This document shows, in pieces, positions 28,812 to 43,673 of a stretch of 64,000 nt of DNA. The position numbers and the translations under genes are program-made. The stretch is taken from positions 151,241-215,240 of the forward strand of contig JBNARJ010000003.1 in the NCBI GenBank assembly GCA_049719515.1. Reading direction: 5' to 3'. The stretch comes from Candidatus Saccharicenans sp. GTDB lineage: Bacteria > Acidobacteriota > Aminicenantia > Aminicenantales > Saccharicenantaceae. Position 1 is the first letter of the stretch. The number at the start of each line of letters is the position of its first letter. The notes below the pieces were generated by a model. The model saw only the letters and a program-made list of their open reading frames with translations, did not search any database and had not been told where the DNA came from.

Positions 28812-29111
28812 TTTCGTGCTTTTTATCAATAAAATTATACAACTTTATGCTTTTATTTTTATGTTTTTATCGTAATTTCCCCATAATTAGTCTGTAAATA
28901 TTAATACTCATTTCGCCCTCTGTCAAAGGGACGGGTCAATTTTGTTTTTGAAAGATCACCGGCTGGCCTCCTGAAAAATTCCGGGTTACGCCCCAGGGAA
29001 AATACAGACGGGAGAAACCGGGCTTCTTCCTCATTTATCTTTTATCTTTTTAACTTAACATTTTTGTTTATTAACTTTTTAATTCGGTTGACTCGGAGAA
29101 AAGATATGATA

Positions 29112-29275
29112 AACTTATGCTCCAGGGTTTAAGCAGGGAAGTCCGTGCGAAACGGACACAGCCCCCGCTACTGTAATCGGCGACAAATCCCTGAAAAAGC
29201 CACTGCCGGTGACGGTGGGAAGGCCAGGGAGGAGGAAGACCCGAGAGTCAGGATACCTGCCTTAGACCTGCTGGC
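29112..29275 (+). promoter_or_regulatory. Cobalamin (AdoCbl) riboswitch
   Basis: Contains ...GCUCCAGGG...AGCAGGGAAG...GCCCCCGCUACUGUAAUCGG...GCCACUG...GGGAAGGCC...AGUCAGGAUACCUGCC (B12 box). It lies in the 5' leader of the TonB-dependent receptor gene. Confidence 0.85.
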
Positions 29276-29354
29276 CCATCTTTTCTTCGGGCGGAAGAGA
29301 AGATGAAATGTCTGGCCACAAAAACTTCAAAAAAGCGGGGGGAAAGGAGTAAAC

Positions 29355-31304
29355 ATGGTAAAAAGCCTTTCTGCCCGTTTCTGCCTTTTCCTCATTTTAT
29401 TGTTTTCTTATTCCATCCTGTTCGGTGCAGTGGAGGATGACCAGTTCAAGGAAGAAAAAATCCATCACGAAATCGTGGTAACAGCCACCAGGCTGGAAAC
29501 GCCAGTCAAAGAAACTGCTTCCAGCGTATCCGTTTTAAACATCGACCCGCTTACCCGGCTTAAATGCACCAGGCCGGAAACCGTTTTCTCCCAGGTCCCG
29601 GGTGTTTTTTACGCCCAGGCCGGGCCGGCTGGTGGAGCCGGTTCTCTTCTGCTTCGCGGCGGAAATTCCGAGCATACTCTGTTCATGATTGACGGGGTGG
29701 AGGTCAACGACCCGATTGCTCCCGCCCGGTCTTTTAATTTCAACTTGTTTAACCTGGCCCTGGTGGAACGGCTGGAAGTCCTCCGCGGGCCGCAGAGCAC
29801 GCTATACGGTTCTGATGCCCTGGCCGGGGTGGTAAATTTAGTCAGTTCGGAACCAGCTTCCAACCATTCGGAGCTCTTAATCTCCGCCGGAACGTTAAAA
29901 ACCTGGCAGGGCACCTTTTACCTGGCCCGGAGGGTAAAAAATCTCGCCTGTGAACTTGAATTAAATTCTTACGCCACCTCCGGTGTTTCTGCCGCCAGCA
30001 GATATTACGAGGGCAATAAAGAGCCCGATGGATTCTCTCAGCAAAGCTTCGCCTTCAAGGCCAGATACCAGGCCAGCCCTGACTTTTCTTTTAGCTGGCA
30101 GGTTCGGGGACTGCTCTCTGAGGCCGACCTTGATGCCTTTGGCGGGCCATATGGTGATGACCCAAACTTCAAGCAGAAAACTTCATTTGCCTTCCAGCGG
30201 GCTGAGTTCAACTTCTTTCTTTTCGGACATCGCTGGGAACAAAAGTTGATTTTCGGACTGGAAACCAGCCGGAGGAAAAATCAAAACGACCCGGATGAAA
30301 GCCATCTCGGGGAAAGCGAAAGAGCGGCTTATCACGGTAATTTCTTCAAGCTCGACTGGCAGAATAACCTTTTTCTCTCCAGAACACAGGCGGTAATTTT
30401 CGGGCTGGAGCTAAAAGAAGAATCCGCTCATTCAGAAGACTTCTATACCGGCCCTTTCGGTTCTTACGAAAGCCTCTTCCCTAAGAAAAAAGCCGGGCTG
30501 CTGGGCTTTTACCTGCAAGACCAGTGGAAGCCAGCCTCTGGCCTGTCACTGACTTCCGGACTGCGCCTTGACCGGCATCGGGAATTTGGAATGGCTCTGA
30601 CTTACCGGCTGGCCGCCCTTTATTCCTGGCCGAACCAAAGATGGAGAATAAAAGCCACGGCGGGCTCGGGTTTTAAAGCTCCATCCCTCTACCAGCTATA
30701 CGCTCCTGACAGTGCCTTCGGCCCTATCGGCAATAAAAATCTCAGACCAGAAAAAAATTTCGGTTGGGACATCGGGTTTGAGCACGATTTGGGCCACGAC
30801 CTGTCATTCAGCCTGACTTATTTTGAAAACCGATACCGTAACCTCATTCAATTTTATTTCGGTAGTGGCTATGAAAACCTCGGCCGGGCTCTAACCCGCG
30901 GGTTAGAAGCTTCCCTGAGCTTCAGACCATTCCAGGCTCTCTCGGCCGAGGGGGGCTGGACCTGGCTCAGGGCGCTCGACCTGGACCATGACGAACAACT
31001 GGTCCGGCGCCCGGCCCACAGTGGTTTCCTAAACTTCGCCTGGGTAGAAAAGAAATTTCGCCTGGGCTTGGAAATCAATTATGTCGGCGCAAGGATTGAC
31101 CTCAACTACTCAACCTATCCGGTTGCCCGGGTTAAACTTCCGGCCTGTTTTTTAACCAGCATCGACCTCCGCTACGACCTCAACCGGAAGTTTGAGGTTC
31201 TGTTTGTGATAAACAACCTGTTCAACGTCAGGTATGAACTTGTTTATGGCTACGGTCAGCCAGGCACTACAATTTCCACCGGTTTTAGATTAAAATTGTC
31301 ATAG
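29355..31304 (+). CDS. btuB: TonB-dependent outer-membrane receptor, BtuB-like
   Basis: Signal peptide, plug-domain TonB-box region (IVVTATRLETP), and a C-terminal beta-barrel ending in an aromatic residue. It is controlled by the cobalamin riboswitch. Confidence 0.8.
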   Translation: MVKSLSARFCLFLILLFSYSILFGAVEDDQFKEEKIHHEIVVTATRLETPVKETASSVSVLNIDPLTRLKCTRPETVFSQVPGVFYAQAGPAGGAGSLLLRGGNSEHTLFMIDGVEVNDPIAPARSFNFNLFNLALVERLEVLRGPQSTLYGSDALAGVVNLVSSEPASNHSELLISAGTLKTWQGTFYLARRVKNLACELELNSYATSGVSAASRYYEGNKEPDGFSQQSFAFKARYQASPDFSFSWQVRGLLSEADLDAFGGPYGDDPNFKQKTSFAFQRAEFNFFLFGHRWEQKLIFGLETSRRKNQNDPDESHLGESERAAYHGNFFKLDWQNNLFLSRTQAVIFGLELKEESAHSEDFYTGPFGSYESLFPKKKAGLLGFYLQDQWKPASGLSLTSGLRLDRHREFGMALTYRLAALYSWPNQRWRIKATAGSGFKAPSLYQLYAPDSAFGPIGNKNLRPEKNFGWDIGFEHDLGHDLSFSLTYFENRYRNLIQFYFGSGYENLGRALTRGLEASLSFRPFQALSAEGGWTWLRALDLDHDEQLVRRPAHSGFLNFAWVEKKFRLGLEINYVGARIDLNYSTYPVARVKLPACFLTSIDLRYDLNRKFEVLFVINNLFNVRYELVYGYGQPGTTISTGFRLKLS

Positions 31305-31377: not shown

Positions 31378-34065
31378 ATGGAAGCCATAGAAACTCTTGA
31401 TAAGATATTTAAACCGCAGCGCATTGCTCTGGTCGGGGTAAGCCCTAACCCGAAAAGCGTCTCCGGGAAAATTCTGTCTAACCTCATTACCGGCGGGTTC
31501 CGGGGCGTTGTTTACCCGGTAAATCCGGCGGTAGAAGCCGTCATGGGTATTCCCTGTTTCCCTTCGGTCAAAGATTTGCCAAAAACACCTGACCTGGCCG
31601 TCATTACGGCCCCTGCTCCTCAGGTGCCAAAGTTGGTGGCTGAGTGCGGCCAGGCTGGCATCCTTGGCATCATTATAATTTCCGCCGGTTTTAGAGAAAC
31701 CGGTCCTCAGGGCCGGGCTTTAGAACAACAAATCCTCGAAGAAAAAAAGAAGTACCCGGGGATGCGCATCCTGGGCCCCAACTGCCTCGGGGTCATCTCG
31801 CCCGGCTTCCAGCTCAACGCCAGCTTTGCCGCTTCCATGCCGCTCAACGGCCACATTGCTTTCATTTCTCAGTCAGGTGCCCTTTGCACCTCCATCCTCG
31901 ACTGGTCCCTGGAAGAAAAAATCGGCTTTTCCTATTTTGTATCCATCGGTAATGCTATAGACATAGATTTTGGCGACCTGATTGACTATTTCGGTGAAGA
32001 CGAAAACACCAAATCAATTTTGCTTTACATAGAATCAATCTCAAACCCAAGGCGCTTTATGTCGGCGGCTCGCGCCTATGCCCGTACCAAACCCATAATT
32101 GCTTATAAGGCCGGGCGGTTTCCAGAATCAGCCGAGGCTGCTTCCTCTCACACTGGCGCCCTCGCCTCAGAAGATGCCATCTACGATGCGGCTTTTAAGA
32201 GAGCCGGCATGGCCCGGGTGTTTGAAATCAGCGAAATGTTCGACGTGGCCGAACTGATTGGCCGCCATAAAATTCCCAAGGGTCCACGCCTGGTCATTGT
32301 CACTAACGCCGGCGGCCCGGGGGTGATGGCCTCCGACGCTTTGATTGAAGCCGGAGGCCAGCTGGCTGAACTTGCGCCTCAGACGATTGAAGTTTTGAAT
32401 CAGGCTTTGCCGCCGGCCTGGTCACACGGCAATCCGGTTGATGTCCTGGGCGATGCCAAGTCGAAGACAGTGGCCAAAGCGGTTAATGCCGTCTTAAACG
32501 ACCCAAACACAGATGCTGTCCTCCTGATTATTACCCCCCAGGCCATGACCAACCCCCCAGGTATCGCCAAAGAAATCATCCCCCTGGCGGCTGAAACGCA
32601 AAAGCCCATCCTGGCTGCCTTCCTGGGTGGCCCGAGCATGCGTGAGGCGGTTAAACTGATGAACGAGGCCGGCCTACCAACTTACACCACGCCGGAACAG
32701 GCGGTGCGCGCCTTCATGATTCTGGTCAACTACGCCCGCAACTTAGAAGACCTCTATGAAACTCCGCGGGAAATCTCGGTAGAATTCCCGGTTGAAAGAG
32801 AAAAAATTCGCCAGGAAATAATTCCCATTTTGAAAAACGGGCCAGAAATCTTAGATGAACAAACTTCCAAAAAAATTCTGGAAGCCTACGGCATCCCCAC
32901 CACCCTACCGCGGGTTGCCCGAACGAAAGAAGAAGCGGTGACCATCAGCCGGGAAATTGGATTTCCGGTCGTGCTTAAAATTTACTCACCAGACATCCCT
33001 CACAAAACCGACGTCGGCGGGGTGGCGCTCGACCTGGAAGATGAGCACATGGTGGAAGTGGCTTTTGAGCGCATGATGAATTCCGTCAAAGAAAAAGCTC
33101 CTGCAGCCCGGATAGAAGGTGTAACCGTCCAGAAAATGGTCAGGCTAAAAGATTCCATAGAAATGATTCTGGGAAGCAAGAAAGACCCTACTTTTGGAGC
33201 GGTCATCATGGTTGGCTCGGGCGGAGTAACCACCGAGGTGCTCGGCGACCGTTCACTCTGCTTCCCGCCCCTCAACGAAAGGTTGGCCCGCCGGTTGCTT
33301 GAACAGCTAAAAACCTGGCCGCTTCTTAAAGGTTACCGGGGCCGGCCTGGAGTCAACATAGACAGGCTGGTTGAAATAATCATCCGTTTTTCTTATCTGG
33401 TAGCTGATTACCCGGAGATTAAAGAAATCGACATCAATCCGCTGCTGGCCGGTGCTTCCGGCGCGGTGGCGCTCGATGCCCGGATTGTGGTCGACCGCAC
33501 GGTTGAGCCGGGTAAGGCCAGGCCGTATGAACACCTGGTGCTCAGGCCTTATCCGGAAGAATTTATACGCAAGGCCACCATGCGCGACGGTACCGAGATA
33601 ACCCTTCGCCCGATTCGGCCTGAAGATGAACCGCTCTGGCTGGAGCTCCTGGGAAGCTGTTCCAAAGAAACCATCTACTCTCGCTTTAGATATTTCTTCT
33701 TCTGGCAATCCCATGAGGTGGCTTCCAGATACTGTTACATCGATTATGACCGGGAAATGGCCATCGTGGCGGAAATCCAGGAAGGAAACAAAAAGAAAAT
33801 CCTGGGCATCGGGCGGTTGACCGCTGACCCGACCAGGACGGTGGCCGAATACGCCGTTTTGGTGCAGGACAACTGGCAGAACAAGGGGCTGGGCGGCCTG
33901 CTCACCGATTACTGCACCGAAATTGCCCGGGCCTGGGGCGTTAAAAAAATCGTCGCCTACACCACAACGGATAACCCGCGCATGATTGCCGTGTTTAAAA
34001 AGCGAAATTTTGAAATACGGCAGGACCCGGATTCAACTCTGGTGGAAATTCAAAAGATTTTGTAA
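31378..34065 (+). CDS. Pat/PatZ-like protein lysine acetyltransferase (NDP-forming acyl-CoA synthetase domains fused to a GNAT domain)
   Basis: 895 aa with an N-terminal CoA-binding domain (IALVGVSPNPKSVSGKI), succinyl-CoA-synthetase-like and ATP-grasp domains, and a C-terminal GNAT domain. Confidence 0.85.
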   Translation: MEAIETLDKIFKPQRIALVGVSPNPKSVSGKILSNLITGGFRGVVYPVNPAVEAVMGIPCFPSVKDLPKTPDLAVITAPAPQVPKLVAECGQAGILGIIIISAGFRETGPQGRALEQQILEEKKKYPGMRILGPNCLGVISPGFQLNASFAASMPLNGHIAFISQSGALCTSILDWSLEEKIGFSYFVSIGNAIDIDFGDLIDYFGEDENTKSILLYIESISNPRRFMSAARAYARTKPIIAYKAGRFPESAEAASSHTGALASEDAIYDAAFKRAGMARVFEISEMFDVAELIGRHKIPKGPRLVIVTNAGGPGVMASDALIEAGGQLAELAPQTIEVLNQALPPAWSHGNPVDVLGDAKSKTVAKAVNAVLNDPNTDAVLLIITPQAMTNPPGIAKEIIPLAAETQKPILAAFLGGPSMREAVKLMNEAGLPTYTTPEQAVRAFMILVNYARNLEDLYETPREISVEFPVEREKIRQEIIPILKNGPEILDEQTSKKILEAYGIPTTLPRVARTKEEAVTISREIGFPVVLKIYSPDIPHKTDVGGVALDLEDEHMVEVAFERMMNSVKEKAPAARIEGVTVQKMVRLKDSIEMILGSKKDPTFGAVIMVGSGGVTTEVLGDRSLCFPPLNERLARRLLEQLKTWPLLKGYRGRPGVNIDRLVEIIIRFSYLVADYPEIKEIDINPLLAGASGAVALDARIVVDRTVEPGKARPYEHLVLRPYPEEFIRKATMRDGTEITLRPIRPEDEPLWLELLGSCSKETIYSRFRYFFFWQSHEVASRYCYIDYDREMAIVAEIQEGNKKKILGIGRLTADPTRTVAEYAVLVQDNWQNKGLGGLLTDYCTEIARAWGVKKIVAYTTTDNPRMIAVFKKRNFEIRQDPDSTLVEIQKIL

Positions 34066-34454: not shown

Positions 34455-35717
34455 ATGACAGCCAAAAAATTTAGAAAACTCATCAACTGGGCTCCCGTAT
34501 TTCTTTTCAGCTGCTTTCTTTCTCTGGCCACTTTAAGGCTGCCGGCTCAGACTCAGGATGAAGGGAAAATGAGCCTGAGTTTTACCGGTTATGTTAAAAC
34601 CGACCTTATCTATGACACGCGGCAAACGGTCAGCATCCGTGAAGGGCATTTTCTGCTCTACCCTAAGGACCGGCTGCTGGATGTGGAAGGGAAAGATTTA
34701 AATGCCAAGGATACTTTTCACATACTCTCCATCCAGACCAGGCTGGCCCTTAAAGCCACCGGACCGAAAGCTTTCGGGGCAGCCACTTCCGCCTATGTGG
34801 AAGGAGAATTTTTCGGTCACTCCGAAGGCGATATTAACGGCTTCAGGTTGAGACATGCTTACCTGAAGCTCAGCTGGCCAAAGACCGAGCTGATGATCGG
34901 TCAGTTCTGGCACCCGATGTTCATAACAGAAAGTTACCCGGAAGTAATTTCTTTCAACACCGGCGCGCCTTTCGAGCCATTCTCCCGCGCTCCGCAGGTG
35001 CGCCTCACCTGGACTGAAAAGAAATTATCGTTTTCCGTGACCGCTCTTTCTCAGAGAGACTTTGCTTCAACCGGGCCGGAAGGAGTCAGCACGGTTTATA
35101 TTCGCAATGCCGCTTTTCCGGAGATAGATTTCAAAGCGGCTTATGCCGGAAAAGACTGGCTGTTCGGGGCAGGCGTCAATTCTCTGAAAATTGTTCCCCG
35201 CCTGGTCACTTATGCAGGCTATCAAGCCGATGAATCTGTCACTTCGCTGGCCGGTTACTTTTTTGGCCGTTTTAAAACCGAACTGCTGACCTTTAAAGCA
35301 CAGGCGGTTTACGGTGGTAACCTTCACCATCTGACCATGCTCGGCGGTTACGGAGTTACGGGAATTGCTGACTACACCTCTCTCAGATGGGAATACGCTC
35401 CCATTAACACGAGCTCAGCCTGGCTTGAAATCCAGACGAACGGGAGCCAGTGGCAGGCCGGGCTTTTTGGCGGTTACAGTAAAAATTATGGAGCCAGGCA
35501 GGAAATTACCGGCTCAATCTACAGCCGGGGAGACCTCATCGACCATCTGTTCCGGCTGGCGCCGCGTTTGGTATTAAATTCCGGCAAAATCCGCTTCGCC
35601 CAGGAAATCGAGCTAACCTCGGCCGCTTACGGCCACCGCGACCAGAAAGCCCGGGTCATTCCTGACCGCACGGTTACCAACGTCCGTTTTCTTTTCGCGG
35701 CCTACTACTTTTTCTGA
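34455..35717 (+). CDS. Putative outer-membrane beta-barrel protein (porin-like)
   Basis: Signal peptide, an alternating amphipathic pattern, and the C-terminal ...FAAYYFF signature of OMPs. Confidence 0.55.
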   Translation: MTAKKFRKLINWAPVFLFSCFLSLATLRLPAQTQDEGKMSLSFTGYVKTDLIYDTRQTVSIREGHFLLYPKDRLLDVEGKDLNAKDTFHILSIQTRLALKATGPKAFGAATSAYVEGEFFGHSEGDINGFRLRHAYLKLSWPKTELMIGQFWHPMFITESYPEVISFNTGAPFEPFSRAPQVRLTWTEKKLSFSVTALSQRDFASTGPEGVSTVYIRNAAFPEIDFKAAYAGKDWLFGAGVNSLKIVPRLVTYAGYQADESVTSLAGYFFGRFKTELLTFKAQAVYGGNLHHLTMLGGYGVTGIADYTSLRWEYAPINTSSAWLEIQTNGSQWQAGLFGGYSKNYGARQEITGSIYSRGDLIDHLFRLAPRLVLNSGKIRFAQEIELTSAAYGHRDQKARVIPDRTVTNVRFLFAAYYFF

Positions 35718-36128: not shown

Positions 36129-36158
36129 AAAAAAAGGGGGCAGCTTTACCTGCCCCCT
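36129..36158 (-). terminator. Rho-independent terminator downstream of the kbl-like gene
   Basis: The minus-strand RNA reads GGGGGCAG-guaaag-CUGCCCCC followed by UUUUUUU. Confidence 0.65.
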
Positions 36159-36206
36159 TCTCCGAATTTTTCCTGCTTCCTAATTATGGTCAATCATCGG
36201 CCGCTT

Positions 36207-37454
36207 TTACATTCCGTACATCTCAATGATTTCCTGCTTTGTCTTGTGCAGGATGTTGAACTTCTTGCCAACCTTTATAAAAGCATCAAGGGCTTTATCC
36301 AGATGGTGGATTTCATGGGCGGCAGAAATCTGCGTCCTGATCCGTGCCTGCCCCTGGGGCACAACCGGGAAGAAGAAACCGATGGCATAAATGCCCTCTT
36401 CATAAAGAGCCTTGGAAAACTCCTGCGCCAGCCTGGCGTTGAACAGCATTATGGGGACAATCGGTGTGTCACCTTCTTTCAGGATGAACCCGGCTTCTGT
36501 CAGACCCTTTCGCCAGTATTCGGTATTTTTTTCCAGCTTGTCGCGGCGCTCGGTGGTGGCCGATAAAATTTCCAGCACCTTCAGCACGGCTCCCACGATA
36601 ACCGGCGCGATCGTGTTGGAGAAAAGATAGGGACGAGCTTTCTGCCGGCACATCTCGACTGTTTCCGCCCGGCCGGAAACGCAGCCGCCGGTGGCACCGC
36701 CCAGAGCTTTACCGAAAGTTGTCGTGATGATGTCAATCTTGCCCATGACGCCGTATTTTTCATGCGTGCCGCGACCCGTCTTGCCGATGAAACCGGTAGC
36801 ATGGGAATCATCCACCAGGAGCATGGCGTTGTACTTCTCGCACAACTCGACCATTTTGTCCAGCCTGGCCGTGTCGCCGTCCATGGAAAAAACACCATCG
36901 GTCACCACCAGCCTCAGCCGTTTGTCCTGGTACATCTGCAGCTTCTGCTCCAGGTGCTCCATGTCCGAATGTTTGTACGTGTCGTGCATGGCACTGCACA
37001 GCCTGATGCCGTCTATCAGAGAAGCATGCACCAGACGGTCCGAGATGATAACATCGTCCTTAGTCAGGATGGCTTCAAACACACCGGCGTTGGCATCCAT
37101 GCAGGAGGGAAAAAGAATCGTATCCTCTGTGCCGAGAAATTCCGTAACTTTCTTTTCCAGTTCTTTGTGGATATCCTGGGTGCCGCAGATAAAGCGCACC
37201 GAAGACATGCCAAAACCTCGGGTCTCCAGGGTTTCGTGGGCCGCCCTGATTACTTCCGGGTGGCTCGACAGCCCGAGGTAATTGTTGGCACACATGTTGA
37301 TGACTTTTTTCAAAGAAGAACCTGCGGGAAATTCAACCTCTATATCGGCTGCCTGGGGGGAGTGGATAAACCGTTCCTCTTTAAAAAGGCCGGCCTCTTT
37401 CAGGGCCTTTAACTGGTCCTGATACAATTGCCTGACATTATCCGGAAAAGCCAT
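36207..37454 (-). CDS. kbl: Alpha-oxoamine synthase, Kbl-type (glycine C-acetyltransferase/2-amino-3-ketobutyrate CoA ligase-like)
   Basis: Collinear with E. coli Kbl from recall (CANNYLGL, DGVFSMDG, PLP-lysine TFGKALGGATGG, PYLFSN, GFFFPVVPQGQARIRTQ). Perfect AAAGGAGG RBS. Confidence 0.85.
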   Translation of the reverse strand: MAFPDNVRQLYQDQLKALKEAGLFKEERFIHSPQAADIEVEFPAGSSLKKVINMCANNYLGLSSHPEVIRAAHETLETRGFGMSSVRFICGTQDIHKELEKKVTEFLGTEDTILFPSCMDANAGVFEAILTKDDVIISDRLVHASLIDGIRLCSAMHDTYKHSDMEHLEQKLQMYQDKRLRLVVTDGVFSMDGDTARLDKMVELCEKYNAMLLVDDSHATGFIGKTGRGTHEKYGVMGKIDIITTTFGKALGGATGGCVSGRAETVEMCRQKARPYLFSNTIAPVIVGAVLKVLEILSATTERRDKLEKNTEYWRKGLTEAGFILKEGDTPIVPIMLFNARLAQEFSKALYEEGIYAIGFFFPVVPQGQARIRTQISAAHEIHHLDKALDAFIKVGKKFNILHKTKQEIIEMYGM

Positions 37455-37520
37455 AGTTTCCTCCTTTCTATGGTTCTGCCGCCTGGCTGGAATTCTTTCC
37501 GGTCAAGCGGAATTTCTTGC

Positions 37521-37769
37521 TCAGGCTTTGGTAAATTCCCGGACCAGTTCGGCAATCTTGTTAACCGAATCAAAAGCTTCGGGCGTGGCTTTTTCATCAG
37601 GTATCTGGATGTTGTACTTGTTCTCCAGGAACCTCTTCAGGGAAACCATGGAAAAAGAGTCCACAATCCCGCCGGAAATCAGTGGTGTGTCATAGGTAAT
37701 GGGGTCCGAGTCCGGTTCAAGATACTCATTGATGATGTAATTCTTGATTACTTCTTTCAATTCATCCAT
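37521..37769 (-). CDS. Acyl carrier protein
   Basis: 82 aa with the phosphopantetheine-attachment motif GGIVDSFSMVSL. AAGGAG RBS. Confidence 0.85.
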   Translation of the reverse strand: MDELKEVIKNYIINEYLEPDSDPITYDTPLISGGIVDSFSMVSLKRFLENKYNIQIPDEKATPEAFDSVNKIAELVREFTKA

Positions 37770-37823
37770 CGTTACACTCCTTTTTATTAATTTTTATTCA
37801 ACCTGACTATTTTTTCAACCACT

Positions 37824-39527
37824 TCAATCATTTTCCAGGGTCGAGGTATCGCCTATTTCCTCTCCCCATTCCTTGGCATGAAGGATTCGTCTCATGATTT
37901 TGCCGCTTCTGGTTTTGGGCAGAGCATCGATGAACTCTATTTCCTGGGGCATGGCCAGAGGAGACAGCTTCTTGCGGATAAAGTTCATGATATCAAGCTC
38001 CAAATCCTTGGAAGGAGTAAAACCGGGCTTCAAAGTGACAAAGGCTTTGACGACTTCCATGTTAATCGGGTCCGGTTTGCTGACCACGGCCGACTCGGCT
38101 ACCGCCGGGTGCTCCAGCAGGGCCGACTCCACTTCAAACGGGCTCACCAGGTGGCCGCCCGTGTTTATAACATCATCATCCCTTCCGACAAACCAGAAAT
38201 AGCCTTCTTTATCTATGCGGGCCCGGTCGCCGGTCAGGTACCAGCCGTTCCGGAATTTGTTCCTGTAAGCTTCTTCGTTGTTCCAGTAAGTTCTCATCAT
38301 TGATGGCCAGCCGGGCTTTAGACCGATCAGCCCGATTCGCCCCGGCTCCGGGTAAGGCTCGTGATTATTCGGGTTCAAAACGGTGGCCGTTATGCCAGGA
38401 AACGGCCGTCCCATTGAACCCGGCTTAACCGGCATGCCCGGGAAGTTGGTTATGACAATGCAACCCGTTTCCGTCTGCCAGTAGGTATCGTGGAAAGGTT
38501 TGCCGAAAACTCGAATGGACCAGTTTACCGCTTCCGGGTTCAACGGCTCGCCGACGCTGGCCAGGTGTCTTAACGAGGACAGGTCGAACTTCTTTATTAT
38601 TTCATCCCCGGCTTTCATCAGCGACCGGATAGCCGTTGGTGCCGTATACCAGACGGTCACCCGGTGTTTTTCGATAAACCTGTACCAGGCTTCCGCCGAA
38701 AAGCCGCTGTCCAGCACACACTGGGTAACCCCCAGGCTGAACGGGCCGATTATGCCATAAGATGTGCCGGTAACCCAGCCCGGGTCAGCCGTGCACCAGT
38801 AGATGTCATCATCTCTTAAATCCAGAACCCATTTGGCCGTCAGATACTGAGAAATCAAAGAGTAATGCACATGCTGCACTCCCTTGGGCATTCCGGTCGT
38901 GCCCGAAGTATAATGCAGCACGGAGGGGGTTTCAGCATAGGTGGGATAAACGGGATAATCCTCCACCTTTTCTGACCCTTCCATGGAAAAGCCGACTTCT
39001 CTTTCCTGAAGCGGTGTCTTCCCATCATAATCAACGATTATGATATGCCTGAGGTGAGGCAGGCGGTCTCTTATTTTTCTGACCTTGGCCACATGTTTTT
39101 TTTGCGTGAAAATGGTGGAAGTCTGAGCATTTTCCAGACGAACAAAAAGAGATTCTTCGCCGAAGGCAGAAAAAAGAGGCTGAACAATGGCTCCGGTTTT
39201 GAGAATTCCCAGAAACCCGATATAGAGTTCCGGCACGCGGTCCATAAACAGACAAACTCTTTCGCCCGCTTTAACACCGAGGTCAGTCAGGAAGCGGGCC
39301 ACCGTGTTGGAATAAAGGCGAACATCGTTGTAGGTAAAAACTTTCTTTTCGCCTGTAAACCCTTCCCAGATTAAAGCCACTTTTTCCGCTTTTCCTAACT
39401 GACAGATGCGGTCCGAGCAATACCAGCCGATGTTGATGACCTGGCCGGGTTGATAACCGAGCTCCTGCTCGGAAATGGCCCAGGAAAAATTTTTTACTCT
39501 TTCTTCGTAAGAACCGAAATTTGACAT
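37824..39527 (-). CDS. Acs-family adenylate-forming acyl-CoA/acyl-ACP synthetase (acetyl/propionyl-CoA synthetase-like)
   Basis: YTSGTTGMPKG; WYLTGD...GRDDDVINTGGHLVSPFEVE; C-terminal SGKIMRR. GGGGAGG RBS. Confidence 0.8.
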   Translation of the reverse strand: MSNFGSYEERVKNFSWAISEQELGYQPGQVINIGWYCSDRICQLGKAEKVALIWEGFTGEKKVFTYNDVRLYSNTVARFLTDLGVKAGERVCLFMDRVPELYIGFLGILKTGAIVQPLFSAFGEESLFVRLENAQTSTIFTQKKHVAKVRKIRDRLPHLRHIIIVDYDGKTPLQEREVGFSMEGSEKVEDYPVYPTYAETPSVLHYTSGTTGMPKGVQHVHYSLISQYLTAKWVLDLRDDDIYWCTADPGWVTGTSYGIIGPFSLGVTQCVLDSGFSAEAWYRFIEKHRVTVWYTAPTAIRSLMKAGDEIIKKFDLSSLRHLASVGEPLNPEAVNWSIRVFGKPFHDTYWQTETGCIVITNFPGMPVKPGSMGRPFPGITATVLNPNNHEPYPEPGRIGLIGLKPGWPSMMRTYWNNEEAYRNKFRNGWYLTGDRARIDKEGYFWFVGRDDDVINTGGHLVSPFEVESALLEHPAVAESAVVSKPDPINMEVVKAFVTLKPGFTPSKDLELDIMNFIRKKLSPLAMPQEIEFIDALPKTRSGKIMRRILHAKEWGEEIGDTSTLEND

Positions 39528-39541
39528 GGCACCTCCCCGTT

Positions 39542-39916
39542 TTATTTCTCTAAAATTACGATGGCCACAGCATATGTTTTAAGATGAGACAGCGAAACAT
39601 GAGCCCGGCTCAATCCCTTGCTTTCGAAAATCTCCTTCGCCCGCCCGAATAACTCAAGCACCGGTTGACCTGTTTCCAGGTTGCGAATTTCAACCTCAGA
39701 AAATTTAACCCCTCCGCTCCAGCCGGTACCCAGAGCTTTCATAAAAGCTTCCTTGGCCGCAAACCGGGCAGCATAATGCAGAGCCGGAGAATGCTTGCTC
39801 TCACAATAAGCTATCTCCAGGCTGGTAAAAAGTTTCTCTTTCAGGCCAGGCGTTCTTTTCAGCTTTTCTTCGACCCGGTCCACTTCAATAAGGTCTACGC
39901 CAATCCCCGAAATCAA
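39542..39916 (-). CDS. acpS: Holo-[acyl-carrier-protein] synthase (4'-phosphopantetheinyl transferase)
   Basis: (M)ISGIGVDLIEVDRV...AAKEAFMKALGTG. TTG start with an AGGAGG RBS 5 nt upstream. Confidence 0.85.
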   Translation of the reverse strand: MISGIGVDLIEVDRVEEKLKRTPGLKEKLFTSLEIAYCESKHSPALHYAARFAAKEAFMKALGTGWSGGVKFSEVEIRNLETGQPVLELFGRAKEIFESKGLSRAHVSLSHLKTYAVAIVILEK

Positions 39917-40036
39917 ACAGCCTCCTGCGCTTGCCCAATAATATTCTGCATTCTTATTTTTAACCGCTCTGAACCTCAGAGCAAAAGCTATTATAGAAAA
40001 AACCTGATAAATGTCAAAACGATGAATTTTAAAATG

Positions 40037-40597
40037 TCAGCCAAGATGGTCAATCAATATTTTGAGACCAATTAATATGAGAATAACGCCACCGGCCACC
40101 TCTGCTCGGCGGCCAAAGACTTTTCCAAGAAGCGGCCCCACTCGGCTGGAGGCGACCGTCAGAGAAAAAGCCATCAGCCCGATGACCACGCTAACCAACC
40201 AGATGTTGATCCCCAGCACGGGAAGGCTGAGTCCGGTAGCCAGGGCATCCTGACTGGTAGCCAGGGCCAAAACAATTAAAGACCAGCCTCTGGTCGGGTC
40301 TTGTGCGTTGAACCTCTCTTCATCTTTTTTAAATGATTCTCTTATCATGCGCAAGCCAATCAGCAGGAGCAGCCCGAAAGCTATCCAGTGGTCATACTCC
40401 GCCACCAGCCTCAATAAATTTTCTCCGACAAACCAGCCGATGACCGGCATGATGAACTGAAACACCCCGAAATGCAGCGCCAGCCTGAAAGTCTGTCTTC
40501 TGTTAAGACCGTTAAGATAGCAGGCCAGCCCAATGGTCACCGCCATGGCATCAAGAGCTAAAGCCACGGCTATTCCGAGTAAAATAAGGACCTTCAT
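40037..40597 (-). CDS. mntP: Manganese efflux pump MntP
   Basis: 186 aa with 6 TM helices and the DAMAV motif of the MntP/YebN family. Confidence 0.85.
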   Translation of the reverse strand: MKVLILLGIAVALALDAMAVTIGLACYLNGLNRRQTFRLALHFGVFQFIMPVIGWFVGENLLRLVAEYDHWIAFGLLLLIGLRMIRESFKKDEERFNAQDPTRGWSLIVLALATSQDALATGLSLPVLGINIWLVSVVIGLMAFSLTVASSRVGPLLGKVFGRRAEVAGGVILILIGLKILIDHLG

Positions 40598-40949: not shown

Positions 40950-43673
40950 ATGGAAGAAAAAATCATCCTGCGCGGCGTCCGGGTTCACAACCTGAAGAAT
41001 ATAGACCTGGACCTGCCCGTCGGAAAACTCATCGTCATCACCGGGCTGAGCGGTTCGGGCAAATCTTCTCTCGCTTTTGATACCCTGTATGCCGAGGGTC
41101 AGCGCCGGTACCTGGAATCGCTTTCCTCATACGCTCGCCAGTTTCTGGAAAGGATGGACAAACCAGAGGCTGACCTCATCGAAGGCCTGCCGCCGGCCAT
41201 CGCCATCCAGCAAAAAGCTCCGGCTCGCAACCCGCGCTCAACCGTTTCTACCGTCACAGAAATATACGATTATCTCCGTGTGCTCTATGCTCGTCTCGGA
41301 ACCATCCACTGCCTGAACTGTGGACAGCCGGTCATTCGTGACACAATAGATTCTATGGCTGATACCCTTCTTAAATTGCCTGCCGGAGAGAAAATTTACA
41401 TCACTTTTACCGCATCTGAGGCAAAAAAAATTTCAGAGCTAAAGAAGGAAGGTTTTCTCAAAGCTTATGGCCAGGGGAAAATCCTGGATCTTGAAGAAAT
41501 AAGAACCGGCGGCCGGGCGGCTGACCCCCTGGAAATCCTGGTCGACCATCTGTCGCTCGACCCGGAAGACCGAGAGAGGCTGGTCGATTCCTTAGAAATA
41601 GGTTTAAAAAAGGGCGATGGGCGGGTAAACGTCCATACTGCCTCTTCGAAAACTTTCCATTTTTCCGAACACTTGGGGTGCAAGATCTGCCACCTTACTT
41701 ATGAAGAGCCAACCCCGAACCTTCTTTCTTTCAACAGCCCGCAGGGAGCCTGCCCGGTCTGCCACGGGTTTGGCGACCTGGCCGTTCTGGATGAAGACCG
41801 GATTATACCGGATAAAAATAAGTCTCTGGAAGAAGGGGCGGTCGAGCCCTGGACCAAGCCGGCTTCTCGAGGTCTGCTCCGCGAATTACTGCGAGAAGCC
41901 CGGAAAAGGCACATCCCGACTGATGTTCCATTTTCTCGCCTCACGCCGGAACAGCAGCGCTTTGTCCTTGATGGCGGAGACGGCTACTACGGGGTTAAAG
42001 GATTCTTTGAATGGCTTGAAAGCAAAAAATACAAGGTTCAGGTTCGGGTGATGCTCAGCCGTTATAGAAAATATGTCCCCTGTCCGGCATGCGGTCATAC
42101 GAGGCTCAATCGCCAGGCTCTGGCCGTAAAAATAGCCGGAAAATCCATCGGTGATTTTAACGCCATGACCGTGGCCGAAGCTCTCAATTTTATCGAAAGC
42201 TTAAATCTTTCGTCTTATCAGCAAAAAATTGCCGAAAAACTCATCCAGGAAATCAGCAACCGGCTGAAATTCCTTTTGGAAGTCGGGCTGGATTACCTGA
42301 CGCTTGACCGCCTGACTTTCACCCTGAGCGGTGGTGAAGCCCAGCGCATCAACCTGGCAGCCGCGCTGAGCGCTTCGCTGGTAGGCACCATGTTTGTGCT
42401 CGATGAACCTTCGATTGGGCTTCATCCAAGAGACAATCACCGCCTGATTAACATTCTGCGCCGCCTGCAGGACATTGGCAACACCGTCGTGGTGGTGGAA
42501 CATGACCCGGAAATCATCAGAGAAGCCGATTACCTGATAGACCTCGGCCCGGGAGCCGGAGAACACGGAGGCCAGGTAATTTACGCCGGACCGATGGAAA
42601 GCTTTCTAAAAAACAGCTCTTCTCTTACTGCCCGCTATTTACGTGAAGAAATTTCTGTTCCCTGTCCGGGGCATAGGCGACAGCCACGCGGCTTTATAAT
42701 CATCAAGGGGGCGCGCAAACACAATCTTAAAAATTTGGACCTGAAAATCCCTCTCGGCAACCTGGTGTGCATCACGGGAGTTTCTGGCTCCGGTAAAAGC
42801 ACCCTGGTGGAAGAAATCATCTATCGCGGGCTTAACGGCGAAGCTGCCGATGCTTTTGACACCATAGAAACCACTCAAAAACTTGACCGGGTAATCATGG
42901 TTGACCAGTCACCGCTCAGCACTTCTCCGCGCTCCATACCGGCTACCTACACCAAAGCCCTCGACGGTATAAGAGAAGTTTTTGCCAGCACGCGGGAAGC
43001 AAGAAGCCTGGGCTATAAACCCGGGCATTTTTCTTTCAACACGAGCCGCGGACAGTGTCCGGACTGCCAGGGGGCCGGGTTTAAGGAAATCGAGATGCAG
43101 TTTCTGAGCGACGTGGTTCTGACCTGCGAGACCTGCGGCGGAAAGCGCTACAAGCCAGAAATCCTGGAAATAAAGTACCGGGGCAAGAACATCCATGAAG
43201 TTTTGCAGATGAGCATCACAGAAGCCCTCGATTTCTTTTCTGACCGTGAAGATATAGTCAGGAGGCTAAAGCCGCTGGCTGAAGTGGGACTGGGCTACTT
43301 AAGGCTCGGCCAGCCGACCACCACCCTGTCCGGTGGAGAGCTGCAGAGAATCAAGCTGGGCTATTATCTGAGCCACGAGAGGGGTCGGCATCTTCTCTAT
43401 TTATTTGACGAACCAACTGTCGGTCTTCATCTTGATGATGTGCGGCTGCTGCTAAACTGCTTTCACAATCTGGTCGATAGAGGACACAGCCTGGTGGTTA
43501 TTGAGCATAACCTGGAAATGATCAAGAATGCCGATTATGTGATAGACCTCGGGCCGGAAGGCGGAGAAAGAGGTGGTTACCTGGTTGCCCAGGGAACACC
43601 GGAGGAGGTGGCTCAAACTCCAGGTTCCATCACCGGTCAATACCTCAGAAAAGCCTTGAAGATGGCTAAGTAA
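40950..43673 (+). CDS. uvrA: Excinuclease ABC subunit A
   Basis: 907 aa with two ABC ATPase modules ([10 protein letters not shown] and [10 protein letters not shown]) and Zn-finger Cys pairs. Confidence 0.95.

Follow-up and report, generated by a model that had tools for sequence, protein, structure and literature searches.

An AcsA-type enzyme, a dedicated carrier protein and a Kbl-type synthase form a conserved cassette in Candidatus Saccharicenans and hundreds of other bacteria: a proposed acetyl-carrier route at the glycine-threonine node

Introduction

Among described systems, the one closest in its logic to the locus reported here is AasR-AcpR-SPT from Caulobacter, Sphingomonas and E. 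coli B, which is composed of a specialised acyl carrier protein (ACP), a specialised acyl-ACP synthetase and a serine palmitoyltransferase (SPT) (PMC9386255). AasR, although annotated as an acyl-coenzyme A (CoA) synthetase, acylates only its cognate ACP and not CoA, SPT prefers acyl-ACP, and the authors argued that the acyl group is in this way diverted from CoA-dependent catabolism (PMC9386255). In the present work we analyse a stretch of 64,000 nucleotides from Candidatus Saccharicenans sp. (contig JBNARJ010000003.1, positions 151,241 to 215,240; hereafter, the window), which carries a cassette of four genes encoding a holo-ACP synthase (acpS), an adenylating enzyme similar to acetyl-CoA synthetase (Acs), a small dedicated ACP, and an alpha-oxoamine synthase (AOS) of the Kbl family that we call Kbl1. 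As in the AasR system, the genes for an AOS and for a small dedicated ACP lie together with that of an ANL enzyme whose annotation is acyl-CoA synthetase.

The likeness to sphingolipid cassettes, already pointed out in the original prediction for this locus, stands for the three-gene logic and falls for family membership, where all the relevant profile models score below their cutoffs. The synthetase of the cassette is AcsA-type with an acetate pocket, whereas that of the AasR system is FadD-like and long-chain. Moreover, the AOS is of the Kbl family (no decarboxylation, glycine as substrate, reversible) and not an SPT, the ACP is no relative of AcpR, its closest folds being DltC, PltL and PigG, and the predicted product would be a primary metabolite instead of a sphingoid base.

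Two other well-described pathways share parts of this logic. In the canonical Tdh-Kbl pathway (E. coli kbl-tdh; Cupriavidus necator tdh-kbl, PMC9814548), free CoA and acetyl-CoA are used without any carrier protein or acetate-activating enzyme, unlike in the cassette. Both have in common a synthase that passes the Kbl equivalog model, the predicted intermediate 2-amino-3-oxobutanoate, and the linkage, in several lineages of the cassette, to genes for threonine dehydrogenase (TDH). The second pathway is DltA-DltC-DltB, where a small carrier, made holo by AcpS, receives its cargo from a free-standing adenylating enzyme (PMC9338922, PMC11035591). Relatives of the Acs-ACP pair are also found directly upstream of a membrane-bound acyltransferase of the MBOAT family. 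The Dlt cargo is D-alanine, whereas the predicted cargo of the cassette is acetate, and the acceptor encoded in the window is a soluble C-acetyltransferase dependent on pyridoxal phosphate (PLP), not a membrane O-acyltransferase.

The adenylating enzyme itself resembles the short AcsA proteins (9g79; regulated by Pat/AcuA-type lysine acetylation) in its length class, acetate pocket, catalytic lysine, Arg584 and the nearby Pat-type gene, and differs from them in a leucine in place of Arg526 in 78 of 78 cassette orthologs and in the dedicated ACP that follows, which is the proposed thiol acceptor. A precedent for acetyl-ACP as a dedicated metabolic intermediate is offered by CitC (EC 6.2.1.22, citrate lyase) and MadH (EC 6.2.1.35, malonate decarboxylase), which use free acetate for the ATP-dependent acetylation of a carrier-protein thiol. 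These proteins belong to families unrelated to those of the cassette. Their carriers bear 2'-(5''-phosphoribosyl)-3'-dephospho-CoA in place of phosphopantetheine, and the acetyl group serves to prime a lyase or a decarboxylase instead of entering a condensation.

A full-text literature search for the triad, for an acetyl-ACP-dependent Kbl, or for an acetate-loading ANL enzyme with a dedicated carrier returned nothing relevant. Judging from its sequences, the cassette would work like AasR-AcpR-SPT and Dlt while being a member of neither, and it is best read, by analogy, as a short-chain and primary-metabolic analogue of the specialised-ACP/oxoamine-synthase principle, for which we found no prior description.

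A four-gene cassette with ACP loci in at least 585 species

The four genes lie co-oriented on the minus strand of the window, as confirmed by an open reading frame check, in the order acpS, Acs-like enzyme, ACP and Kbl1. The first one (39542..39916) has a TTG start and encodes a holo-ACP synthase of 124 residues; it is followed by an AMP-forming adenylating enzyme of the AcsA type (37824..39527, 567 residues), the carrier protein (37521..37769, 82 residues) and Kbl1 (36207..37454, 415 residues), an AOS with the class-II aminotransferase fold. From 5' to 3', the intergenic gaps are of 14, 54 and 66 nt, and a ribosome-binding site of the AGGAGG/GGAGG/AAGGAG type precedes every start codon by 5-7 nt. 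The operon is closed by an intrinsic terminator (36129..36157, minus strand) with a GC-rich stem of 8 bp, a 6-nt loop and a U7 tract (GGGGGCAG-GUAAAG-CUGCCCCC-U7), and the 91-nt region folds with a minimum free energy of -30.9 kcal/mol (z = -2.5). The tight spacing, strong ribosome-binding sites and clean terminator predicted for these genes are thus all found. Between mntP and acpS there is a candidate sigma-70-type promoter (39990..40017, minus strand; TTGACA-16 nt-TATAAT), which matches the consensus at 12 of 12 positions by pattern only; a consensus scan of this region gave 10 promoter-like sites against 5.1 expected, among which that at 40017..39990 is the sole perfect one.

The original prediction proposed a gene-neighbourhood search for conserved acs-ACP-kbl triads in other genomes. 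With an alignment of the ACP as query, we scanned a single genome of each GTDB species and obtained at least 585 confirmed species-level ACP loci; gene order was then assessed by tblastn with the window proteins in the best 80 of them, all from other species. An Acs gene lies immediately upstream of the ACP in 75 of the 76 assessable loci, and Kbl1 immediately downstream in all 77, an arrangement far beyond a chance neighbourhood that bears out the ACP as a genuine dedicated partner of both enzymes. Median gaps are of 32 nt (acpS-Acs), 63 nt (Acs-ACP) and 12 nt (ACP-Kbl1). The acpS gene, whose presence within the operon had been regarded as unusual, precedes Acs in 59 of 70 loci, which makes it a frequent but not an obligatory member; a first view, based on six loci (L002-L007), had placed it outside the cassette and was overturned by the 80-locus survey.

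The hosts include Aminicenantes, Bacteroidales (Prolixibacteraceae, and metagenome-assembled genomes (MAGs) labelled Draconibacterium), Zixibacteria, Delongbacteria, Holophagales and others. Between phyla, sequence identity amounts to 72-97% for Acs, 72-99% for ACP, 79-99% for Kbl1 and 44-84% for AcpS, with values around 72-84% being typical of the three triad proteins and around 50% of AcpS. Recent horizontal transfer, as a source of an identity of about 80% between phyla, was rejected on the basis of a tree of concatenated Acs and Kbl1, which follows taxonomy and cleanly splits Aminicenantes from Bacteroidales. The conservation of the triad is therefore a sign of vertical inheritance under strong purifying selection. 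In the same tree, some MAGs labelled 'Eubacteriales' (L021, L023, L028, L046, L073) and 'Alphaproteobacteria' or 'Hyphomicrobiales' (L030, L072) nest within the Aminicenantes or Bacteroidales clades, whose synteny they share, and are probably mislabelled bins.

The adenylating enzyme and the holo-ACP synthase

The Acs-like enzyme scores 770.7 bits with NF003313 ('acetate--CoA ligase', PRK04319 type), above the cutoff of 729, and its closest solved relative is an acetyl-CoA synthetase of 572 residues (9g79, 571 bits). Compared with Salmonella enterica Acs, the acetate pocket is kept (equivalents of W309-V310-T311, V386 and Trp414), in agreement with the short-chain specificity expected for it. 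Among the orthologs, the pocket motif DTYWQTETG has Trp in 65 sequences and Phe in 12, DPGWVTG is found in 77 of 78 and [AS]SVGEP in 78 of 78. The motif of the catalytic and acetylatable Lys609 (A10 lysine) is also kept, reading PKTRSGKIMRR in 76 of 78 orthologs.

Three conserved arginines of Acs (Arg191, Arg526 and Arg584) have been tied to CoA binding and to the thioester-forming conformation, and Arg526 stabilises that conformation in CoA-using Acs (PMC10455477). In the cassette enzyme, the equivalent of Arg526 is Leu ('GGHL' or 'AGHL') in every one of the 78 orthologs (the 'GHL' subtype), whereas both 9g79 ('GER') and S. enterica Acs ('GHR') have Arg. The region around Arg191 gave no reliable alignment. 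We propose that the enzyme may be an acetate:[ACP] ligase.

AcpS (TIGR00516, 94.5 bits, cutoff 59.8; PF01648) belongs, with its 124 residues, to the class of single-domain phosphopantetheinyl transferases of about 120 residues. The cassette ACP would presumably receive its phosphopantetheine arm from this enzyme, as might the housekeeping ACP.

A carrier protein of its own kind

The cassette ACP is an acidic protein (pI 4.4), half of whose residues are invariant. Its phosphopantetheine site would be Ser38 in the motif GGIVDSFS, invariant in 88 of 88 sequences. An AlphaFold2 model (pLDDT 86.5) has helices at residues 3-16, 38-52 and 69-80, with Ser38 opening helix II, and predicts the helical bundle of a carrier protein with three long helices. 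A Foldseek search with this model gave a probability of 1.00 to DltC, PltL, PigG and ACPs. In the PDB, the top match was DltC as bound to DltB in the complex 6bug; the best matches also include the carrier that partners a glycine:[carrier protein] ligase. DltC, PltL, PigG and the glycine-ligase partner all receive their cargo straight from free-standing adenylating enzymes and are not ACPs of fatty acid synthase.

None of the 13 carrier-protein hidden Markov models (HMMs) that match the protein does so above its cutoff. The score with the model of housekeeping AcpP is 33.4 bits (TIGR00517, cutoff 70.45), and helix II reads SFSMVSLKRFLENKY, with Lys and Arg, where an acidic recognition helix would be expected in AcpP. 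The best curated model is ACP_for_OlsHI, with 67 bits against a cutoff of 130. A link to ornithine lipids was discarded, since this match is below the cutoff and the OlsH paper states that neither ACP nor CoA is needed by OlsH. About 60 clusters (50% identity) of a library of 1.8 billion proteins match the ACP at E<=1e-10. Taken together, these sequence comparisons suggest a family of its own, and we propose that its members may act as acetyl carriers.

Kbl1, a distinct paralog of the Kbl family

The synthase had been predicted to be much closer to Kbl (glycine C-acetyltransferase or 2-amino-3-ketobutyrate CoA ligase) than to Spt, and the profiles give this result, for CqsA as well: 587.1 bits with TIGR01822 (cutoff 493) and 583.3 bits with NF005394 (cutoff 460), against 330, 287 and 240 bits for the SPT equivalog models (cutoffs 640, 500 and 670) and 194.6 bits for the CqsA/LqsA model NF005526 (cutoff 428). 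The BioF and ALAS models are also far under their cutoffs. Pairwise scores with the solved Kbls 7bxp, 7v58, 3tqx and 1fc4 range from 452 to 481 bits, against about 247 bits with SPT, and the motifs TTFGKALGG, DDSHATGF and VHAS align with those of the solved Kbls (TxGKAxGG, DDSHA and HAS).

However, Kbl1 differs from canonical Kbls. In an alignment of 71 distinct orthologs, including the window copy, about 35 positions are fixed across the Kbl1 set and distinguish it from canonical enzymes. Two specific traits are an FPxG insertion and a conserved C-terminal tail of about 13 residues. The residue preceding the PLP-stacking His is Val in all Kbl1 sequences instead of the canonical Asn, and a canonical Lys is replaced by Gln in the loop VVPKGQARIR.

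A canonical Kbl, which we call Kbl2 (396-409 residues, 610-676 bits), occurs near the cassette in 30 of the 52 loci of at least 12 kb (hereafter, long loci), either just 5' of acpS, sometimes overlapping it, or just 3' of Kbl1. Given its fixed differences and the frequent vicinity of a canonical copy, Kbl1 appears to be a distinct, specialised and non-redundant paralog, for which we propose acetyl-ACP and holo-ACP as the possible substrates. The original prediction made a tdh and a housekeeping acpP elsewhere in the genome part of its refutation. Such genes would not refute the idea: in many genomes tdh and a canonical kbl are close neighbours of the cassette, an argument for the non-redundancy of the cassette enzyme.

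Threonine dehydrogenases, acetate channels and other companions

The absence of a tdh gene, another claim of the original prediction, is true for the 64-kb window, where tblastn with two SDR-type and one Zn-type TDH gave no hit, and does not apply to the cassette family. An SDR-type TDH is encoded directly 5' of acpS in two Zixibacteria (L032, L045), directly 3' of Kbl1 in L072, divergently from Kbl2 in L081, and a few kb from the cassette in L002-L007 and others; these proteins score 330-430 bits to solved TDHs. In a variant with an ACP of 56% identity (L089-L092), a Zn-dependent Tdh (536 bits, cutoff 380) directly precedes the row Acs-ACP-Kbl1-Kbl2, and ilvD, ilvB and ilvN follow Kbl2 on the same strand (e.g., L089 3955-14247), an adjacency that might point to an anabolic route leading from threonine to isoleucine. 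TDH genes occur within the flanks examined in only 7 of 52 long loci. The fact that two non-homologous types accompany the cassette is good evidence that Kbl1 would handle 2-amino-3-oxobutanoate.

Other companions have to do with acetate. The gene after Kbl1 is, in 28 of 67 loci, that of a SatP/AceTr acetate channel (272 bits against a cutoff of 50), and a Pat-type protein is encoded near the cassette in 15 of 52 long loci from Aminicenantes and Bacteroidales. The regulation of Acs through lysine acetylation by Pat is known from Salmonella, and by analogy the Pat-type protein could regulate the Acs-like enzyme in the same manner. Homologs (40-75% identity) of an outer-membrane protein of 420 residues from the window are found near the cassette in 23 of 52 long loci, again in Aminicenantes and Bacteroidales; it may be a putative dedicated porin. 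In the 2-4 kb gaps of the Bacteroidales and Aminicenantes loci there are no further conserved genes, just a variable content of MFS transporters, thioredoxin-like proteins, PKD and type IX secretion system proteins and unknowns.

The Acs-ACP pair beside other acyltransferases

More distant ACP relatives (47-60% identity) were traced on their contigs, and some of them have a different partner. In three loci (L088, L093, L098), a GHL-type Acs is followed by a related ACP (47-53%) and by an MBOAT O-acyltransferase (PF03062), which was recognised by a large homology search and whose homologs are named AlgI/DltB-like in the sources; a PDB sequence search with its N-terminal fragment gave no match. 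The row in L098 (6016-9483) sits inside a polysaccharide-synthesis cluster, with an ACP of 83 residues and an Acs that is 65% identical to that of the window and carries DTYWQTETG, DPGWVTG, GGHL and PKTRSGK. The L098 genes show frameshifts typical of long-read assembly errors.

In another contig (L094 140-1223), about 350 nt separate an ACP of 60% identity from the next gene, which encodes a hexapeptide-repeat O-acetyltransferase; a 38-residue fragment upstream of this ACP is not identifiable as Acs, the contig being too short for the upstream gene. The ACP of L096 precedes a divergent Kbl1 that keeps the subfamily signatures. A further MBOAT context (L099) was left out, as its AMP-binding enzyme is just 25% identical and has no signatures. 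From these sequences, the GHL-type Acs and its ACP family appear to behave as a module serving at least two kinds of acyl-transferring enzymes, Kbl1 and MBOAT, and the MBOAT clusters are apparently analogous to DltA-DltC-DltB, acetate being their predicted cargo.

A proposed acetyl-ACP pathway and its alternatives

We propose, with a probability of around 0.55, that the cassette combines an acetate:[ACP] ligase, an acetyl carrier and an acetyl-ACP-dependent Kbl1, operating at the node of acetate with glycine, 2-amino-3-oxobutanoate and threonine. AcpS would turn the 82-residue apo-carrier into its holo form, and the Acs-like enzyme would adenylate acetate and transfer the acetyl group to the phosphopantetheine thiol of the carrier, either instead of CoA or in preference to it. 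Kbl1 would then catalyse the reversible reaction of acetyl-ACP and glycine to give 2-amino-3-oxobutanoate and holo-ACP. TDH, encoded at the cassette in some lineages and elsewhere or not at all in the genome of the window, would tie this intermediate to threonine. The dedicated carrier could thus hold a private thioester pool, uncoupled from acetyl-CoA and CoA and from the CoA-dependent Kbl2, a rationale that we take by analogy from AasR-AcpR-SPT, where the acyl group is channelled away from CoA metabolism. This model draws on the strict gene order and strong constraint of the triad across phyla, on the non-redundancy of Kbl1, on the Leu that replaces Arg526, on the related Acs-ACP pairs beside MBOATs, on the resemblance of the ACP fold to carriers loaded by adenylating enzymes, on the presence of acpS in the operon, and on the linkage to TDH and SatP genes. 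A carrier-tethered glycine C-acyltransferase route, as originally suggested, is the explanation that best accounts for the comparative data. The aminolipid or signal product envisaged for it is unlikely, given the predicted acetyl group and the linkage to TDH, Kbl2 and an acetate channel. Gene identities, gene order, subfamily signatures and contextual links are direct observations; that the Acs-like enzyme loads the ACP, that Kbl1 uses acetyl-ACP, and which way the flux runs are what we infer from them.

Several facts weigh against this proposal. The Acs-like enzyme and Kbl1 both clear NCBI curated equivalog cutoffs for CoA-dependent activities. The equivalent of Arg584, which in S. enterica Acs touches the 3'-phosphate of CoA, is kept, and with it and the Pat-acetylatable Lys609 motif the Acs-like enzyme could still make acetyl-CoA. 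Kbl1 has no residue-level sign of a lost CoA binding or of a gained ACP-docking surface. One locus (L042 5471-7614) has acpS, ACP and Kbl1 with no Acs between acpS and ACP, and we found no experiment on any member of the cassette. In L042, which is a short contig, acpS and the ACP are separated by only about 270 nt.

One alternative is an ordinary CoA-dependent metabolism, which we consider rather improbable but the likeliest of the rival explanations. Here, Acs would make acetyl-CoA and Kbl1 would be a normal 2-amino-3-ketobutyrate CoA ligase for threonine catabolism or acetate assimilation, with ACP and acpS merely co-transcribed, as a regulatory or scaffolding protein or as an acetyl acceptor for another pathway. 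Besides the equivalog scores and the conserved acetate pocket, Lys609 and Arg584, this reading would agree with Tdh-Kbl being a known CoA-dependent pathway, and with Pat-type regulators and SatP as classical companions of CoA-forming Acs. However, it leaves unexplained why an ACP with half of its residues invariant lies between both enzymes in 75-77 of 76-77 loci, why a canonical Kbl2 stands beside Kbl1 in many genomes, why Arg526 is universally replaced by Leu, and why the same Acs subtype occurs with a related ACP next to MBOAT O-acyltransferases.

A different question is the direction in which an acetyl-ACP shuttle would run. We lean slightly towards condensation, from acetate and glycine to 2-amino-3-oxobutanoate and threonine, because the ligase is AMP-forming, the acetate channel is of the uptake type, a Pat-type regulator is present nearby, and ilvD-ilvB-ilvN lie beside one variant. 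The co-orientation with the catabolic Kbl2 and with TDH is equally compatible with threonine breakdown, the acetyl group being released as acetate. A fully catabolic version, which is a sub-variant of our proposal and not an independent model, seems unlikely to us: threonine would be converted to 2-amino-3-oxobutanoate, Kbl1 and holo-ACP would give glycine and acetyl-ACP, and the reversed AMP-forming enzyme would turn acetyl-ACP, AMP and PPi into acetate and ATP, with export of acetate by SatP and conservation of energy at the substrate level. Such a reversal of an AMP-forming Acs for ATP synthesis has reportedly been seen in Syntrophus aciditrophicus, the TDH in or beside the cassette and the co-oriented Kbl2, sometimes overlapping acpS, would fit, and SatP-type channels could presumably work either way. 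Nevertheless, no energetic gain is evident over Kbl2 plus an ADP-forming acetyl-CoA synthetase or Pta-Ack, Pat-type control and a transporter of the 'uptake' type fit acetate activation better, and the ilvDBN genes beside one variant hint at anabolism.

The weakest alternative is that the tethered route leads to a specialised product of the CqsA/LqsA or sphingolipid kind, be it a small aminoketone, a pyrazine-type signal or an aminolipid. It is suggested by the synthetase-ACP-AOS layout shared with sphingolipid cassettes (PMC9386255), by the spontaneous decarboxylation of 2-amino-3-oxobutanoate to aminoacetone, a pyrazine precursor (PMC9814548), and by the lack of tdh in the window, and is in our opinion very improbable, since the scores of SPT models (240-330 bits, cutoffs 500-670) and of the CqsA type (195 against 428), like those of all the sphingolipid and sulfonolipid models, are far below the cutoffs, and the acyl pocket retains the Trp that restricts Acs to acetate. 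In the loci surveyed, the context is one of TDH, Kbl2 and an acetate channel, and conserved neighbours include neither a reductase nor an N-acyltransferase nor any other gene for lipid tailoring. Moreover, a core set that is vertically inherited, highly constrained and spread over at least 585 species would be more typical of primary metabolism.

If the acetyl-ACP proposal is correct, a textbook CoA step of amino-acid and acetate metabolism would run on a dedicated carrier protein in hundreds of species of abundant anaerobes, for the most part uncultured (Aminicenantes and Bacteroidales of sediments and digesters, together with Zixibacteria and Delongbacteria). The public annotations of the three genes, acetate--CoA ligase, acyl carrier protein and glycine C-acetyltransferase, would in the case of both enzymes misname the substrates, and metabolic reconstructions would misroute acetate, glycine and threonine in the lineages bearing the cassette. 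What is known for sphingolipids, a private acyl-ACP pool that supplies an oxoamine synthase, would then also apply to a two-carbon unit and to primary metabolism. A broader hypothesis, which we put forward tentatively and with some doubt, is that acetyl-ACP, in place of acetyl-CoA, might be the working thioester of a widespread and previously unrecognised two-gene acetate-loading module made up of a GHL-type Acs and a DltC-like carrier. Its private pool, charged at the expense of ATP, would drive the Kbl reaction, normally a catabolic one, towards the synthesis of threonine from acetate and glycine, and the module would serve as acetyl donor for MBOATs that modify envelope polysaccharides and possibly for hexapeptide O-acetyltransferases. 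In that case, the GHL-type Acs and its ACP would be a portable acetyl-donor module bearing on the O-acetylation of envelope polymers, and the missing acetyl donor would be identified for a class of envelope-polysaccharide O-acyltransferase systems.

Surroundings of the cassette in the window

No second Kbl, SatP or other ACP is encoded within the 64-kb window, so that the genome holds here a minimal four-gene form of the cassette. Upstream of it lie mntP, for manganese efflux (40037-40597, minus strand), and uvrA (40950-43673, plus strand), a flank kept only in the Saccharicenans clade (L008-L021) and therefore outside the cassette. On the other side, the outer-membrane-type protein of 420 residues is encoded on the plus strand (34455..35717), with a signal peptide, C-terminal aromatic residues and no Pfam or NCBIfam match. 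It is preceded by the gene for the Pat-type protein of 895 residues (31378..34065, plus strand), which combines ADP-forming acyl-CoA-synthetase-like domains (542 bits to TIGR02717 for the N-terminal part) with a C-terminal GNAT domain matching 'acetyltransferase Pat' at residues 734-881.

An Rfam search detected no riboswitch or leader RNA on the cassette, and the sole match in the window is a cobalamin riboswitch (RF00174, 107.8 bits; 29108-29278, plus strand). This riboswitch lies directly 5' of a gene for a TonB-dependent receptor (29355-31304, plus strand), which is BtuB-like with 256 bits against a curated cutoff of 599.

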